Source: Treponemataceae bacterium (GTDB taxonomy: Bacteria > Spirochaetota > Spirochaetia > Treponematales > Rectinemataceae). Taken from it: a stretch of 64,000 nucleotides of DNA. Shown in pieces: positions 36,001-51,000 of the stretch. The position numbers were made by a program. The stretch spans positions 704,001 through 768,000 of the forward strand of contig CAXXHO010000005.1 of NCBI GenBank assembly GCA_963667725.2, written 5' to 3'. The stretch's first letter is position 1. Every line of letters starts with the position of its first letter.

Positions 36001-39000
36001 TCCTGAACTTAAAATCCCGCGAAAGCGAAAGCACCGAACCCCTGATGTAATTGCCCCAGAACCCTGGGAGCATCTCCGGTACCTGATCGATATGAAAGTA
36101 TTCCTCGTCCGGGAAATCCATGCTCTGGATTTTCACGAAACCCGCATCGTCGGGCGCGTAGAGCAAATCCACGTTCACGTCCAAAGCCATGCCTGTGACC
36201 AGTCCGCCCTGGTGATCTATATGCGCCCCAAGGGGACAAATCCTCAAAGGAGAACGAATCTGGCCGCAGTGGGGAAAGCCGAAGATGTCTATGAACTGGC
36301 GCGCGATCGTATCCATATGATCCTGTTATCCTGTCAAAATTGCTTATAATGCGAAGCAAACCACTCAACGAAGCGCTTTAAACCTTCGGCAATGCTTGTG
36401 TGGGGTATCCATTGCACCGTGCTTTCAAGATCGTCGATCTCGGCTTCCGTGGCGTACACATCGCCCGGCTGCATCGGAAGGTACTTCTTTATGGCCACCT
36501 TCCCGATCGCCTTTTCCAGCTCCTCGATGAAGACCGAAAGCCGTTCCGAATGATTGTTGCCTATATTGAAGACCCTGTAAGGCGCCCTCGACCGGGAAGG
36601 ATCGGGATTCGCGGGATCCCAGGCCTTATCCCCTTGGGGGATTTTATCGGCTATGCGGAGAATACCCTCGACGATGTCGTCGACATAGGTAAAATCCCTC
36701 CACATATCCCCATTGTTGTAGATATCGATCGAGCGACCCTCGACGATAGCCTTCGCGAATTTGAAATAAGCCATATCGGGGCGGCCCCAGGGACCATAGA
36801 CCGTAAAAAACCGCAGACCCGTCGTCGGCAATCCATAGAGATGACTGTAGCTATGAGCCATGAGCTCGTTCGACTTCTTGGTAGCGGCATAGAGGCTTAC
36901 CGGATGATCAGTATGATCTTTCGTGCTGAAAGGCCTCGTGTCGTTGAGGCCATAGACCGAGGAACTCGACGCGTACACAAGATGGGAAACCTTCGCGTGC
37001 CTGCAAGCCTCGAGCATGTTCAGGAACCCTACGATATTCGAATCGATATACTCGCGGGGATGATCGATGCTGTACCGAACCCCAGCCTGAGCGGCGAGAT
37101 GAATGACCCTGTCGAAGGCAAATTCCTTGAAGAGCGACTCGATCGCGGCCTGGTCCTCAAGCTTCATCCGGATGAAACGCATATTTGGGTACGCGGCGCT
37201 GTGTACGGCCTTTCCCCAGACTTCCGCTTCCCTATTGATCCCCAACTCCGCGAGACGGGCGAACTTGAGCTCCGGATCATAGTAACTGTTGATGGCGTCG
37301 ATCCCGACGACGGAATCACCGCGCTCTAAAAGCCTCTTCGTCGTATGAAAACCTATAAATCCGGCCGCGCCGGTCAACAATATTCGCATTCGCTATCTCC
37401 CGACGCCGATGTAGGCAAATCCCAGAGCCTCAGCCTGAGCGCGGTCGTAAATATTCCTGAAATCGAAAAGCACGGGCGTCTTCAGAAGGCGCTTTACCTT
37501 GGCAAGGTCCAGGTTCCGGAATTGGTTCCACTCCGTAAGGATGACGAGAGCGTCGGCATCCTTCATTGTGTCGTATTCTCCCGCGCAGTAGGTGACATGA
37601 TCATCGATAGCCTGAAGCCTCCAGGAAGCCTCTTTCATCGCCTCCGGATCGTAGGCTTTGATCCTGGCTCCCTTGGACACCAGGGCGGCAAGGATCGCGA
37701 GGGCTGGGGCTTCGCGCATGTCGTCCGTGTTGGGCTTGAAAGCAAGACCAAGGACAGCCAGCTTCTTCCCCTTCAATGACCCGAGCGCCGCTTCGATCTT
37801 GTCCACCATGCGCAGCTTTTGGGCTTCGTTCGCCAGGATCGTCGCTTCCACTACCTTCAGGGGGCTATCGTTCTTTCGCGCGATATCGGCGAGCGCCTTC
37901 GTGTCCTTAGGGAAACAGGAACCTCCGTAACCGGGACCAGGATGGAGGAATTTGGCCCCGATGCGGCCATCCTTCCCCATCGCCGTGGCGACGGCTTTGA
38001 CGTCGGCGCCCACCTTCTCGCAGAGATTCGCTATCTCGTTGATGAAGGTTATCTTGACCGCCAAAAAGGCGTTGGACGCGTACTTGATCATCTCGGCCGA
38101 CTCGAGATTGGTCTCGATGAAGGGCGTCTCGTTGAGATACAGCACCCGGTAGATCGCGCGCATCGCCTCGCGGGCCTTGTCCGACTCTATGCCGAGCACG
38201 ACCCTATCCGGATGCATGAAATCGTAGACCGCCGACCCTTCGCGAAGGAATTCGGGGTTGGACACGACATCGAAGTCATGCGAGAGCGCGCTAGAGGGGC
38301 TTTGGAGCGCCCGGGCGGCCAACTCTTCGGCGATCCACTTTTTGACAAGCCTTCCGGTACCGATGGGCACCGTGCTCTTGTCGACCACCACTCGATAGCT
38401 GTCTATCGTGCGGCCGATAGTCCGCGCGGCTTCCTCGACATAGCGAAGATCGGCAGAACCATCGTCCGAGGGGGGCGTTCCCACCGCTATGAATATAACT
38501 TCCGCCGCCTGGATAGCTTGGGACGCGTCGGTAGTGAAAGAAAGGCGTTCGGCGGCCACGTTCCGCGCCACCACATCGGAGAGCCCCGGCTCGAAGATGG
38601 GGATTTGTCCTGCCCGAAGGCTTTCGATTTTTTTCTCGTCGACGTCGACGCAGGTTACCGTGTTGCCGAAATCGGCCAGGCAGGCGCCCGACACGAGACC
38701 GACATAGCCGGTACCGATTACCGCGATTGATGCCATAACACTTCCTAGACAGGATAACAGGAGGTGCGGGATTTACGGGTAAATCTTGGGGGTCCTGTTA
38801 TCCTGTCCTATTGTATAAAGTTTTAAAATGGGTTCTGCCCCATCTTGGTGTAGCGTAGTGTATTTTTTTGAATCAAAGTCAGTGGCTTTATGCGTTCTCC
38901 AGATAAAGGAGCCTCACATCATAGGCATTTTTATTATTAGAATTCTAAAGCTTGACAATACTTTGGCGAGCCCTTACCCTTCATTGTATAAGAGCCAGAG

Positions 39001-48000: not shown

Positions 48001-51000
48001 TGGGGCAGGATTAACGGGAGAAGGATTTAGGTAAAGAGAAGAGAATTCAATTCTTTACCTATAGCTTTTTCCTGTCGGTCCTGAAGGTCCTGTTATCCTG
48101 TCCAAAAGTTAACAAATGGGGTCCGACCCCGGCCGCAGGAGCCTTTCGGCTTGTTCCACGAGGTATAAGGGGAGTGAGAGAAGCTTAAAGGGCTGAGGTT
48201 TTTTCCCCGCGATCGATGTTGTGGACTCAAGGCATGAAGGCAGATCGTCATTGAAGCGCAAACCCAAGGAAGCGTTCTTCTCCTGTATGAACACCTGGAG
48301 CGACCTGAGCCGGCCCGTCTTGCCTGCCTTGACTTCGACAGGAACGGCAAGGCTTCCCGCCTGGATGAGATAATCCACCTCGGCGGTGGAACCCTTGCTC
48401 TGTCGGTTCCAGTAAAAAAGGGAAGGCTCGTGATAGAACCCATTCCGATACAGAAGATGCTGGCCGATGAACTGCTCCGCCATGGCGCCGGAATTGACAA
48501 GCGTCATATCCTTATCACGCGGTAAGTCGGCCGCGTTCAGACCGAGAAAAGACGCCAGGAGACCAATATCCAGAAAAACCAGCTTAAAGGAGGAAGGATG
48601 GATTTCGGCGCCAAGGGGAATCCCATTTCCATCTGAATGAAAAACCCTAAACACGAGGCGCGCCTTCTCTAATAGATCAAGACTCTCTCTCACCTGGATC
48701 GACCGAGCGAGAGGATTGAGACTCGAGTATTTCGCCGTCTTGCCAATCGTCGCGGGAATGTTCTTGAAGACCGCCTGCAGCATCGGTACATCGACCTTTC
48801 GCTTATATTTGCTGAAATCGGCATAATAGGTGAGCAAAAGGCTACTCTGCGCGCGTGCCGCGGCTTTCATGTCGAGATCCGATTCTATGAAAGCCTTGAC
48901 AACCCCCGGCAAGCCCCCTACCAGGAAATATTCCCTCAAGAAGGCTCGCGCCTTGGCATGAAGCGCTTCGGGCAGGCTTTGAGAAATTCGATACATGGAA
49001 AGATACTCACGCAACTGTTCCTGCCCGCGAGCCAGGAGAAATTCCTCGAAACTCATTGGCCCCAGATACATGAACTCGATTCTTCCGACGGGAACGGAGT
49101 ATTCCGGCGCGCCGAGAGAGAAATCCAAGAGGGAGCCAGCGGCGATAACATGGAGTTCCGGCATCTTTTCGTAAAAATAGCGGAGCTTGGCCAGTACGGC
49201 GGGCGCTCCTTGAATTTCATCGAGGAAGAGAAGGGTTTCCCCCGGGACAATCTTCTTTGAAGCATCGGCTTCGATAAGCCGCACGATGGTCCGGACATCA
49301 GGCTCGTCGAAAAGGCTCGCCTTCTCGGGATTTTCATCGAAATTGATCTCCACGATCGAATCGAATGCCTGTCGCGCGAAAATCCGCACGAGTTCCGTTT
49401 TTCCGACCTGCCGCGCGCCGCGTATGACGAGAGGTTTTCTGTCTCAGGCGCCAGGCGCCAGGTTTTCTGTCGGGTCTCAGGCGCCACTGCGCGAGGAAAT
49501 CGAGAGCAAAGCGTTTCATAATGTTGATTATACAATATTTACCTAGTATTTTCAACAATTATTGCTATTATTATAGGATATAATAGCAGACAGGATAACA
49601 GGAGAAGCAGGATTTACGGAAATAGGATTTAGGTAAAGAGAAGATAAGAAAGAAAGGGAATTCTTTAATAAATGCTTTTTCCTGTAGGTCCTGGGGGTCC
49701 TGTTATCCTGTCCTATCGCTAGGGCGCCTTCTTGGGCGCGGGGGCATAGTCCCTATACTTGCGTTTGAAGTTTATGTCCTGGGGCCCGAAGTTGATGATG
49801 AGGCCCGTGGGCGTATTGGTGGCTTTTAAGTAATTCACGAGCTGTATCTCATGGACTTTATTGATGGCTTCCACAGCCTTGAGTTCCAGGATGACCTGAC
49901 CATTAACGATAACGTCGGCAAAGAAAAAACCGATCATCGATCCTTCGTAATACACCTCGATCGGCGCTTCGATGATGAAGGGCAGCTTGGCTTTATGCAG
50001 TTCTATGGCCATCGCCTGCTTATAGACCGATTCCAGGAAGCCCGCGCCGAGGGTGTTGTATACCGTAAAGGCACAACCGATGATTTTTTCCGTGAGGGGA
50101 TCTTCCACCATACCTTTATCGCGCGCGGGGTGGGGGCTTTTGATTCAATGTGGACAGGATAACGGGATGAGCAGGATTTACGGAAGAAGGATTTAGGTAA
50201 AGAGAAGATAAGAAGGAAAGACGATTTTTTAATAAAAGCTTTTTCCTGTAGGTCCTGAAGGTCCTGGTATCCTGTCCAATTATATCATTTTTCGGTATTA
50301 TCCATGTAATGCCCACTATTCAAACCTATACGGCTATCATCATTGGAGCGGGGCCGTCGGGCCTCTTCGCCGCCATTCGACTCGCCGAAGCCATCGGCGG
50401 CGGCGAGGGCATCCTCGTTCTCGAGCGCCGCGAGAAACCCGCCCGCAAGCTGCTTCTCTCAGGGTCAGGCCAGTGCAACCTCACCCACGCGGGGGAAATA
50501 GCCGACTTCCTCGGCCACTACGGCGGCGGACCGAAGGCCGAATCGGCCGCACGCTTCCTAAAACCCGCCCTCTACGCCTTCACTAACGAGGAACTCCTCG
50601 CCTGGTTTGGCGCCCGGGGCATCGAATTCGAGACCGAGGATTCGGGCAAAGTCTTCCCCGCCGACCGCCGCGCCACTTCCGTTCTCAAGATTCTCCAGGA
50701 CGAAGCCTATCGCCTGGGCGTGCGCATAGCGGCGAACAGCCGCGTCAGCGGCATAAGCGTCTCAGAGGGCTTTCTCGTACGGGTGGAAGCGGTGACCGCC
50801 GATGCTCCGGCTGCTCCGGAGCCCGCCGAATATCGCGCCCCGATTGTCCTGATCGCCACGGGAGGCTTGTCCTACCCCAAAACCGGCAGCACGGGTGACG
50901 GCTACGCGCTCGCGGCCTCCTTGGGACATCGCGTCGTCCCGCCCAGGCCGGCTCTCGCGCCCGTTTACGTCCGGAACTTCGCCCTCAATCCTCTCGCTGG

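Follow-up and report, generated by a model that had tools for sequence, protein, structure and literature searches.

A gene-cassette array bounded by ACAGGAT palindromes, with a candidate cognate GxxExxY nuclease, in a Treponemataceae bacterium

The locus was analysed in a window of 64,000 nucleotides (positions 704,001 to 768,000 of contig CAXXHO010000005.1, NCBI GenBank assembly GCA_963667725.2). A paired-termini search of this window identified 10 complete imperfect palindromes of 60-160 nt with the termini GACAGGATAACAGGA...TCCTGTTATCCTGTC, all of a single polarity; matches to the 15-mer terminus, with up to 2 mismatches, numbered 23 there, where shuffled sequence would give 0.07. One palindrome follows each of seven minus-strand cassette genes (Table 1). 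Pfam agreed with the preliminary description in assigning six of these to AAA_14/DUF4143 and one to PDDEXK_3, and the ORF ends agreed with its placing of the element end from 45 nt inside to 70 nt past each stop codon. The true start of cassette b is probably further in, because the TTG start listed for it is within the element that follows, and the right-arm remnant at 41008..41042 looks like the scar left by a lost cassette. The short palindrome at 38748..38807 is situated just upstream of a UDP-glucose dehydrogenase gene and is missing there in the congener G002. The diverged palindrome at 51601 is followed by a 40-nt terminator-like hairpin (51785-51825), and both are missing in G002, giving a filled site and an empty one.

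Table 1. Features of the array and its flanks, in window positions.
Feature	Position	Strand	Evidence
Solo right terminus (TCCTGTTATCCTGTC) between galactokinase start and epimerase stop	36321..36335		terminus search, Pfam
Short 60-nt palindrome, termini and second stem without centre	38748..38807	+	fold -18.2 kcal/mol
Cassette without Pfam family; ORFs 38828-39169 and 39112-39495 on plus strand	38808..39723		missing in G002
ACAGGAT palindrome, 115 nt	39724..39838	+	paired termini, nhmmer profile
Two ORFs without Pfam family	39931..41024	+	86% identity to G002 stretch
Right-arm remnant, 21 nt ahead of next complete element	41008..41042	+	termini, nhmmer profile
ACAGGAT palindrome, 124 nt	41064..41187	+	termini, nhmmer profile, fold
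AAA_14/DUF4143 gene, cassette a	41258..42508	-	Pfam
ACAGGAT palindrome, 125 nt	42569..42693	+	termini, nhmmer profile
AAA_14/DUF4143 gene, cassette b	42698..44035	-	ORF ends, Pfam
ACAGGAT palindrome, 160 nt, long-centre type	43984..44143	+	termini, nhmmer profile
AAA_14 gene, cassette c	44155..45354	-	Pfam
ACAGGAT palindrome, 160 nt	45418..45577	+	termini, nhmmer profile
DUF4143-only gene, apparently truncated, cassette d	45568..46425	-	Pfam
ACAGGAT palindrome, 124 nt, covering last 45 nt of next gene	46479..46602	+	termini, ORF ends
AAA_14/DUF4143 gene, cassette e (Y)	46558..47949	-	Pfam; common to C4 (83% nt) and C6
ACAGGAT palindrome, 117 nt	47986..48102	+	termini, nhmmer profile, fold
AAA_14/DUF4143 gene, cassette f (X)	48109..49389	-	Pfam; common to C4 (86% nt)
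ACAGGAT palindrome, 124 nt	49589..49712	+	termini, nhmmer profile
GxxExxY (PDDEXK_3, PF13366) nuclease gene g03039	49719..50111	-	Pfam, alignment, structure model
ACAGGAT palindrome closing array, adjoins HI0933-like gene	50153..50276	+	termini; sole copy retained at locus in G002
Diverged palindrome between convergent HI0933-like and IF-2B-family genes	51601..51747	+	nhmmer profile
Diverged palindrome, opposite polarity	52901..53059	-	termini, nhmmer profile

Folding as ssDNA gave, on either strand, a single long hairpin (-22.8 to -29.2 kcal/mol), as had been claimed for three copies, ordered as terminal stem, unpaired spacer and second stem, and 0 of 200 shuffles folded as well. In the genome as a whole, 45 non-overlapping copies were found with an nhmmer profile (C3 4, C4 14, C5 17, C6 10), the same total as in the preliminary description, which had differed in its split between contigs (C3 5, C4 13). 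Polarity was uniform inside arrays: 14/14 copies were on the plus strand in C4 and 15/17 in C5, and 10/10 were on the minus strand in C6.

Cassette content and order were found to vary among three co-binned versions of the locus (C5, C4 and C6), one congener and independent metagenome contigs, as expected from the earlier claim that cassettes are gained and lost as units, and the breaks between versions lie in or at palindromes. The C4 and C6 cassettes (AAA_14/DUF4143, PRiA4_ORF3 twice, HicB, HicA with HicB, and FGE-sulfatase) were those previously reported. Cassette X precedes Y in C4, but Y precedes X in C5; between the cassettes common to both, C4 has five more than C6, and a solo element in C6 corresponds, between flanks that are 97% identical, to an AAA_14 gene with a right-arm remnant in C4. 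In the congener G002, whose flanks are 93-97% identical, the boundary palindrome is the sole copy at the locus, which holds an unrelated sugar-transport operon instead. In one metagenome contig (91-94% identity; L207) the nuclease cassette adjoins cassette c, with no d, e or f in between, such joints coming from short de Bruijn contigs in which chimerism across repeats is possible. When cassette Y was aligned between C4 and C6, 97% identity was observed to begin and end exactly at the outer termini. The elements flanking it are only about 82% identical and mosaic, which is easier to reconcile with recombination distributed along the repeat than with a fixed crossover of the integron type. Adjacent AAA_14 proteins of the C5 array share 19-34% identity (57% in one pair) whereas the intervening palindromes resemble each other much more closely, and simple tandem duplication is therefore ruled out as the origin of the array.

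The element is a member of a family of ACAGGAT heptad-array palindromes that spans phyla and domains. When one-genome-per-species contigs were searched with a pattern of 20 specified bases, the same termini were identified in at least 123 stretches from many bacterial phyla and Archaea, confirming the spread proposed in the preliminary description; some MAGs contained 169 and 106 termini, compared to 0 with a reversed-pattern control, and a covariance model located the element in 19 of 61 related genomes (G000 counted). The preliminary interpretation has to be revised here: the element is confined neither to this locus nor to cassette arrays, and in other phyla the palindromes are mostly solitary, intergenic and beside housekeeping genes. 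PDDEXK_3 accounted for 2 and transposases for 0 of the 129 ORFs neighbouring them there, and neither 77 loci nor the genome with 169 termini yielded an autonomous copy that carries a known transposase. In G005, which belongs to another genus, the element has the reverse polarity relative to AAA_14 genes, and in phage contigs half-arms in sense orientation precede start codons by 30-100 nt. No published description of the element or of the array was found in the literature, in line with the earlier statement that it is undescribed.

Exactly two PF13366 genes are present in G000, each being the last cassette of an ACAGGAT array. The protein encoded by g03039 was modelled with a restriction-endonuclease-like fold (pLDDT 90.6); its residues E27, D66, E76 and K78 are invariant, and the catalytic E, D, E and K were invariant in 17/17 aligned proteins. 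In a tree of 19 proteins, all seven (7/7) flanked by ACAGGAT arrays formed one clade (support 100/100), which takes in a member from the Planctomycetota, while 12 others from the same spirochaete order fell outside. In a 26-row set, the 9 ACAGGAT-flanked rows gave 2 label changes compared to a shuffled mean of 7.7 (0 of 500 shuffles as low), and in a Clostridiales MAG with 169 termini the single PF13366 gene is bracketed by ACAGGAT arms, the flanking words having been labelled by eye in part of the comparisons, including this gene. Relatives of the window protein were encoded in 66 metagenome loci with at least 150 nt on both sides of the gene, and 56 of these had at least three CAGGAT/ATCCTG words within 260 nt (background 0.62 words per 520 nt), 33 had an inward bracket and 5 had no words, the sample not being independent of the clade definition because the loci were picked with clade-typical peptides. 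Unlike in the common bracket, the arms adjoining the window gene point outward, as it lies between two complete palindromes and not inside one. No PF13366 gene was found in 13 of the 19 element-positive relatives, including G005 (27 model matches, 94% completeness), and presence of the element did not correlate with that of PF13366 (6/19 element-positive and 17/42 negative genomes). The preliminary description was correct that no integrase or transposase family adjoins the array, but its statement that there is no recombinase has to be qualified: g03039 falls in the clade whose genes lie between ACAGGAT arrays in several phyla, and its product is a candidate cognate enzyme of the element, with a putative activity on it.

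MITEs such as Correia/NEMIS of Neisseria and ERIC/IRU of enterobacteria are non-coding, 60-300 nt long and multi-copy, have terminal inverted repeats, form a single long hairpin and lie between operon genes. The ACAGGAT element is likewise small and non-coding, with terminal inverted repeats, one hairpin and multiple copies between genes. It differs from them in that no target-site duplication was found, its arms consist of 3-4 phased heptads, its partner gene encodes a 125-130-aa PD-(D/E)XK nuclease instead of a DDE transposase, and its termini recur across phyla and in Archaea and here bound gene cassettes that are shuffled. Bertels and Rainey 2011 (PMC3116915) describe REP/REPIN elements, which are associated with RAYT transposases, as extragenic inverted doublets which form hairpins in ssDNA or mRNA and as non-autonomous, with a particular gene linked to each family; these elements are also the subject of Di Nocera et al. 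2013 (PMC3733652). The ACAGGAT element is also extragenic, inverted, hairpin-forming, non-autonomous and tied to one gene, but has no GTAG or CGTC tag, and its arm is a direct heptad array and not a small palindrome. RAYT was rejected as its enzyme, as Y1/RAYT genes do not track it (9/19 element-positive and 24/42 negative genomes). Integron arrays with attC sites, and CALINs, consist of co-oriented single-gene units, each with an imperfect palindrome after the gene. The ACAGGAT array shares the co-oriented single-gene units, palindromes of 60-160 nt, strain-variable content and a fixed chromosomal spot; unlike these systems, it has non-conserved cores, no adjacent integrase, a complete site on both sides of the gene and crossovers not confined to one point, and solitary intergenic copies of its site are common. 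Steczkiewicz et al. 2012 (PMC3424549) catalogued PDDEXK_3 (PF13366) and DUF4143 (PF13635), the two gene families of the array, as PD-(D/E)XK members of unknown function, in passages which mention neither mobility nor repeat arrays at the flanks.

It is possible, though rather unlikely, that the palindrome is a passive, MITE- or REPIN-like, non-autonomous repeat which inserts after T-tracts and terminator hairpins, with homologous recombination between copies altering the cassettes and the GxxExxY gene as a passenger or target. Since each gene of the row ends in a terminator of its own, such a repeat would pile up there, and the outer flanks are indeed T-rich (T 0.79 at -3 and 0.71 at -2), with the elements of arrays starting directly after the U-tract of a 40-nt terminator-like hairpin. 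The filled and empty sites relative to G002, the mosaic flanking elements, the mostly solitary copies in other phyla with hardly a PDDEXK_3 and no transposase among their neighbours, and the element-positive genomes without a PF13366 match are all consistent with it. Random insertion would, however, mix polarity, which is uniform in the arrays; no target-site duplication or autonomous copy was seen at the sites and in the genomes searched, and the tight tie of one GxxExxY clade to ACAGGAT arrays across phyla would still need explaining.

We consider it improbable that the palindromes serve as sites of recombination, whether of an unusual attC class or of a new type, at which a tyrosine or serine recombinase from another locus, possibly one of the integron integrases of the bin, excises and inserts gene-plus-site circles. 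The bin does contain integron integrases, one element follows each co-oriented ORF, and terminal stem, spacer and second stem recall the R box, spacer and L box of attC; G·T-type pairs also exceed A·C-type mismatches by 80 to 10 cells on one strand (our own tally, from copies that are not independent), which suggests one folded, functional strand. An attC identity was nevertheless rejected, as AAC/GTT cores are retained in only about 12 of 32 aligned copies (those of C4/C6 being GAC/GTC) and the genome's own attC sites, with canonical GCTTAAC/GTTAAGC words, differ in sequence. That difference, and the lack of elements inside the integron, had been stated previously and were upheld: the attC family of C5 occupies approximately 396.8-550.0 kb and adjoins IntI (550880-551806), which lies about 190 kb from the palindromes studied here, and its 153-kb array is free of ACAGGAT elements. 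The reversed polarity in G005, identity breaks spread over the element and the solitary copies among housekeeping genes further argue against such a system. There is similarly little likelihood that selection keeps the palindrome beside genes, without its moving them, for insulation, for mRNA-end stabilisation or processing, or for the binding of a protein to its array (a regulator or a GGA-motif RNA-binding protein, for example). The hairpin is very stable (z -7 to -17) and is positioned at gene ends in operon-like rows, the phage half-arms lie upstream of start codons, and the heptad presumably resembles the CAGGAUG repeats of CsrB-type RNAs. The hairpin is followed by an A-run instead of a U-run, and so is not an intrinsic terminator; near-identical termini of 16-25 nt in Bacteria, Archaea and phages are hard to reconcile with a host factor, no Rfam family matched the element, and 100-170 copies in some genomes with none in close relatives look like bursts.

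Our preferred explanation, offered tentatively and with not quite an even chance of being correct, is a nest of one nuclease-bearing and many gene-less selfish palindromes, recombination at which shuffles the intervening genes. The full form of the family would be two inverted ACAGGAT heptad arrays around a small GxxExxY PD-(D/E)XK nuclease gene, and the locus would comprise one nuclease-bearing unit (49589-50276) together with nine or more palindromes that lack a gene, dividing up a row of genes which are transcribed independently and mostly encode AAA_14/DUF4143 ATPase-nucleases. A separate terminator hairpin stands at the end of each gene of the row, and as every gene lies between two near-identical palindromes of about 120-160 nt, recombination could delete, duplicate, re-order and import genes as units. 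RecA-dependent recombination between repeats of 120-160 nt would yield the same patterns without a dedicated enzyme. The anatomy, the cassette differences between strains, the membership of the wider family and the tie of the nuclease clade to ACAGGAT arrays are demonstrated. Under the preferred explanation, we infer from them that the folded or extruded palindrome is a target for cutting by the GxxExxY nuclease, and that these cuts, and not plain homologous recombination, drive the shuffling; the break would stimulate recombination by homing-like copy-repair, from a filled to an empty site. As the end gene encodes the nuclease that is the usual companion of the repeat, the array probably has its own enzyme, and the outcome of recombination at the palindromes would be an integron-like array without an integrase.

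The 15-mer GACAGGATAACAGGA was found 23 times in the window as against 0.07 occurrences expected (up to two mismatches, both strands), and paired matches to it bounded each of ten complete imperfect palindromes between positions 38748 and 50276, which confirms the row of palindrome-separated genes reported in the preliminary description. The termini of the element are GACAGGAT and its arms are direct heptad repeats, so arranged that each element is an inverted array of at least three phased ACAGGAT words. Traits of the MITE type were also present, namely perfect termini of 15 bp, a length of 60-177 nt and 45 copies in the source genome (G000). 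A genome-wide profile search placed these 45 non-overlapping copies on contigs C3 (4), C4 (14), C5 (17; the contig of the window) and C6 (10). Strand polarity was clear, with score differences between strands of up to ~100 bits, and was the same throughout the arrays (14/14 copies on C4, 10/10 on C6 and 15/17 on C5). When a replication-strand rule for polarity was checked, GC skew proved weak, and a single skew arm held all four C3 copies, whose polarity is mixed. Incomplete and diverged copies in the window are listed in the table together with other features of the locus.

Features in and around the cassette array
Feature	Window position	Other location	Remarks
Solo terminus	36321-36335		
Two overlapping plus-strand ORFs, no Pfam family	38808-39723		Between 60-nt and 115-nt palindromes; absent in congener genome G002
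Right-arm remnant	41008-41042		
Diverged copy	51601-51747		
Diverged copy	52901-53059		
~40-nt palindrome	809, 1902, 2324, 38817, 41190, 48105, 51785-51825	C5:693649-706324; C4:22838-29627	

As single-stranded DNA the element was predicted to fold into a single long hairpin on either strand (-22.8 to -29.2 kcal/mol), while 0 of 200 shuffled sequences folded as well. The consensus fold of 32 aligned copies consisted of a 15-bp terminal stem with a variable and often mismatched middle triplet, an internal loop of 4-8 nt and a second stem, which (read by eye) carried a single bulged T in the C5 copies and was paired without a bulge in those of C4 and C6. By our own tally of the consensus-fold table, in which copies are not independent, G·T-type pairs occupied 80 cells as against 10 for A·C-type mismatches, and the plus strand therefore folded better by 2-4 kcal/mol. 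Each AAA_14 gene of the array has a terminator-like 40-nt hairpin of its own, and the palindrome begins right after the U-tract of that hairpin; for every gene of the array the stop lies between 45 nt within the downstream element and 70 nt ahead of it, as had been described. The outer flank of the elements is rich in T on the left side and in A on the right. An intrinsic terminator was rejected as an identity for the element, as a T-run precedes the hairpin and an A-run follows it on either strand, and a known RNA family was likewise rejected, as the five hairpin-type Rfam matches (24.8-30.3 bits) all fell below gathering scores of 72-100.

The array is made up of minus-strand genes, by Pfam six AAA_14 and/or DUF4143 genes (cassettes a-f) and one PDDEXK_3 gene, with galactokinase, epimerase and UDP-glucose dehydrogenase genes on one side and a gene for an HI0933-like flavoprotein on the other. 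Among the 20 DUF4143 genes of G000, 13 adjoin a complete element and one more adjoins an arm remnant (read by eye). The gene families of the cassettes on C4 and C6 agreed with those previously listed. The two overlapping ORFs in the table may represent a decayed gene. Some 5 kb before the array is a Y1 transposase gene of the IS200 type (33802-34160; C5:737802-738160), broken by TGA, TAG and TAA stops within the match. Identity between locus versions was 92-99% for C4 against C6 and ~70-86% for C5 against both. Due to the presence of three locus versions, three full integron integrase genes (C5:550880-551806, C7:37069-37989 and C1:34408-35331) and a bin contamination of 6.26%, the versions on C4, C5 and C6 probably represent related co-binned populations, three of which are mixed in the assembly.

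The locus versions differed at the level of whole cassettes, with breaks at or within the repeats. Cassettes f (X; 48109..49389) and e (Y; 46558..47949) are arranged as X,Y in C4 but as Y,X in C5; C4 also carries a duplicated block of two cassettes, and five cassettes in C4 separate two which adjoin in C6. Within 97% identical flanks, a solo element in C6 corresponds to an AAA_14 gene with only a right arm in C4. On an independent metagenome contig (L207; 91-94% identity) the nuclease cassette was joined to cassette c, with d, e and f missing. Joints at or in elements were also seen in Logan contigs from three groundwater metagenomes (e.g. 42585 to 48017 in run X5 and 43978 to 46477 in run X7); these were given little weight because short contigs are possibly chimeric across repeats. 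Recent tandem duplication was ruled out as the source of the near-identical palindromes, since the AAA_14 proteins which they separate in the C5 array share only 19-34% identity (57% in one pair).

In the alignment of cassette Y between C4 and C6, the stretch of 97% identity ran precisely from the outer terminus of one flanking element to that of the other, these elements being themselves only ~82% identical and mosaic. No sharp identity steps were found at elements in the profile of C4 88-92 kb against C6, nor did per-arm identities, tabulated for 4 of 10 shared-cassette pairs, link elements consistently to their genes. The mosaic flanking elements and the lack of a fixed crossover fit homology-guided exchange, with or without a nuclease.

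The congener genome G002 has flanks of 93-97% identity and a single palindrome, located at the HI0933 boundary. Between the same flank genes it carries a sugar-ABC/sigma-54 operon (locus L158, G002:C6:86000-105500 compared with window 38736-50309) encoding a sugar ABC importer of the CUT2 type, a sigma-54 activator and a kinase that has an ABC-ATPase domain. The interval looks like a general insertion hot spot. At the left boundary between G000 and G002 segments were replaced, with no clean empty site. A filled and an empty site could be compared on the other side, where the diverged palindrome at 51601-51747 and a 40-nt hairpin are absent in G002 between the same convergent genes. The stop codon of the HI0933-like gene (AAT TAG, within 51590-51610) spans the junction with this palindrome, and the stretch resembling the G002 end of that gene is displaced beyond it.

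Sites of the attC type have conserved cores, R'' (RYYYAAC) and R' (GTTRRRY). GGATAAC...GTTATCC cores were present in only ~12 of the 32 aligned copies of the element, the copies on C4 and C6 having GAC/TAC...GTC. The genome's own attC family, which was found by k-mer counts (an exact scan for R-box pairs gave no enriched bins), has canonical GCTTAAC/GTTAAGC words and a different sequence; these words span C5 396.8-550.0 kb beside the IntI gene at 550880-551806, while ACAGGAT copies on C5 start at 676712 and none lies inside the attC array. The element was thus distinct from the genome's attC sites, as the preliminary description had held; the two differed in cores, sequence and location, and assignment to an attC class or CALIN was rejected. 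REP units are characterised in one account (PMC3733652) as GTAG- or CGTC-tagged palindromes of 20-40 nt. No such tag occurs in the ACAGGAT termini, whose arms are direct heptad repeats, and Y1 (PF01797) genes were present in 9/19 element-positive and 24/42 element-negative related genomes, with none in G005, a genome of another genus with 27 element matches; a REP/RAYT system was rejected on the grounds of the missing tag and the Y1 distribution.

A covariance model built from 32 copies was run over 61 related genomes (G000 counted) and the element was identified in 19 of them (by family 15/36, 3/6 and, in other families, 0/18). Copies in G005 likewise punctuate a polysaccharide locus, one that contains AAA_14/DUF4143 and PIN genes. 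Across species, a pattern of 20 specified bases, searched in one genome per species, gave at least 123 stretches. The matches listed included bacteria (Planctomycetota, Verrucomicrobiota, Kiritimatiellae, Lentisphaerae, Desulfobacterota, Nitrospirae, KSB1, Calditrichota, Gemmatimonadota, Clostridiales and Spirochaetota) and Archaea (Methanoperedens, Bathyarchaeia and Methanobacteriota), and among them the copies in other phyla were palindromes of 48-290 nt with roughly three ACAGGAT units per arm in ordinary spacers. The 129 ORFs neighbouring elements among these matches were mostly housekeeping genes, with two PDDEXK_3 genes, one AAA_14/DUF4143 gene (in a Treponemataceae MAG) and no transposase or integrase families. 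Counts of termini reached 169 in one Clostridiales MAG and 106 in one KSB1 MAG, with 0 matches to the reversed pattern. In the former MAG, elements of ~400 nt with GACAGGATTACAGGAT termini formed tandem triplets at a spacing of ~37-55 nt (G061:C16:50022-51320 and 23215-24284).

Five viral contigs carried ACAGGAT arms, often half-arms, between terminase, portal and tail genes. On tailed-phage contigs (L160, L162/L165 and L163/L166) sense half-arms lie 30-100 nt upstream of the start codons of structural genes, and one phage contig of 11.6 kb has eight half-arms. On L162 a further word, CTCTGTG, forms an inverted array after the ACAGGAT words.

A second repeat, a perfect palindrome of ~40 nt (AAAGTTAAAAAWNGGGGTCWGACCCC...TTTTTAACTTT), gave 38 strand matches in G000, including twelve sites ~1 kb apart just before and at the window start. 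It resembles a bidirectional terminator. Half copies directly adjoin ACAGGAT elements, and the repeat may delimit a further set of cassettes.

The nuclease cassette at the array end carries a GxxExxY gene (PF13366; 49719-50111) which sits between two palindromes. G000 has exactly two PF13366 genes, each the last cassette of an ACAGGAT array (C5 and C4). At 18 PF13366 loci of related spirochaetes the gene was commonly bracketed by inverted tandem-heptad arrays (words read by eye), the word varying by locus (CACGGAG, CGCAGAG, CGCGAAG or ACAGGAT). In a 19-row tree the ACAGGAT-flanked proteins formed one clade (support 100/100) which includes the window protein, a protein of Thermoguttaceae (Planctomycetota) and another from an unclassified MAG, while the 12 remaining proteins, from the same spirochaete order, fell outside it. 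In a 26-row tree the nine ACAGGAT-flanked rows required two label changes, compared to a mean of 7.7 on shuffling (0/500 shuffles as low), so that clade and word are linked. Loci L167-L206, from relatives and other phyla, showed other GxxExxY clades bracketed by inverted arrays of CACGGAG, CGCAGAG, CGCGAAG, CACGGAT or CACGAAx, and this pattern suggests that each GxxExxY clade has a DNA word of its own.

The single PF13366 gene of the 169-terminus Clostridiales MAG is of the ACAGGAT type, with ACAGGAT arms on both sides; one of 12 PF13366 matches in the KSB1 MAG and one of six in another MAG are of this type, and a Methanoperedens MAG has only a partial PF13366 gene with a different word. In metagenomes, 80 loci with relatives of the window protein (49-98% identity) were sampled by peptides typical of the ACAGGAT-flanked clade, 66 of them with at least 150 nt on both sides. 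At least three CAGGAT/ATCCTG words lay within 260 nt at 56 of these 66 loci (background 0.62 words per 520 nt), an inward bracket, with sense words upstream and inverted words downstream, was seen at 33, and five had no such words.

Seven residues (G22, G24, E27, Y30, D66, E76 and K78) were invariant in 17/17 aligned GxxExxY proteins. The structure predicted for the window protein (pLDDT 90.6) has a restriction-endonuclease-like fold, the best solved relatives in a fold search being the BpuSI nuclease domain (Z 8.4), 3ijm (Z 8.3), Cas4 (Z 7.9) and Hjc (Z 6.5); these are generic PD-(D/E)XK proteins, from which no specific function follows. A sequence search of solved structures gave no matches for the nuclease or for an AAA_14/DUF4143 protein. 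PDDEXK_3 and DUF4143 are both catalogued by Steczkiewicz et al. 2012 (PMC3424549) as PD-(D/E)XK families of unknown function, and by that catalogue all seven annotated C5 cassettes therefore belong to one nuclease superfamily. Across the 61 genomes there was no correlation between PF13366 and the element (6/19 positive and 17/42 negative genomes), which counts against a simple nuclease-element partnership; the association was seen in the adjacency and clade tests only and not in presence/absence.

We tentatively favour, at a little under an even chance, a selfish element in which the nuclease cuts the palindromes and homology-guided repair shuffles the intervening genes. The nuclease, we infer, would recognise the ACAGGAT arms and cut the folded or extruded palindrome; the break would be mended from another locus, with palindromes serving as homology, and anything between two palindromes could thereby be copied, lost or re-ordered. 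A passive MITE acted on by ordinary recombination is rather unlikely. The element shares with MITEs a short non-coding build, terminal inverted repeats and many copies, and the exchange at cassette Y would need no nuclease. It differs in that no target-site duplication was found at 39 G000 copies or at 34 copies from other phyla among the matches listed. No known transposase family was found between or beside termini, including 77 cross-phylum loci among those matches; the form of the element that does carry a gene between such arms encodes a PD-(D/E)XK nuclease. In the 169-terminus MAG, termini paired at distances of 1.9 and 3.6 kb have YchF and an oxidoreductase between them and no transposase.

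A site-specific, integron-like system is very unlikely, as crossover is not fixed at one point. The orientation of the element is uniform in the G000 arrays and, relative to the AAA_14 genes, opposite on contig C49 of G005. We regard a selected structural or regulatory hairpin, for which the stable fold would speak, as equally improbable. The selfish-element reading has a broader form, in which palindromes and putative PD-(D/E)XK cutting, in place of a tyrosine recombinase, drive gene capture, loss and re-ordering as an analogue of the integron, with horizontal spread among numerous bacterial phyla, Archaea and phages and with sister clades using words of their own (CACGGAG, CGCAGAG, CGCGAAG and others); this form is distinctly doubtful, if less so than either the site-specific system or the selected hairpin.

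Neither the palindrome nor GxxExxY genes bracketed by repeats were found to be described in the literature, subscription journals and supplements aside; the terminus sequence gave no match as text, and the literature on GxxExxY, PDDEXK_3, PF13366 or TIGR04256 held nothing on repeats. Small foldback repeats that have a partner gene are already known as a kind; the variants new here are the build from heptad arrays, the PD-(D/E)XK partner, the spread across domains and the integron-like arrays. The window contributes a cassette array, strain-level turnover and a candidate cognate nuclease at the array end. Even on a modest reading, a dispersed palindrome creates integron-like variation, which is a warning against scoring such arrays as CALINs or integrons. 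If the selfish-element reading is true, the very large uncharacterised GxxExxY family (PF13366) would acquire a definite function and a DNA substrate open to testing, and a repeat family of many phyla and Archaea would gain a candidate enzyme; the spirochaete arrays would also show that, next to polysaccharide loci, such repeats can arrange accessory genes as exchangeable units with no integrase involved.
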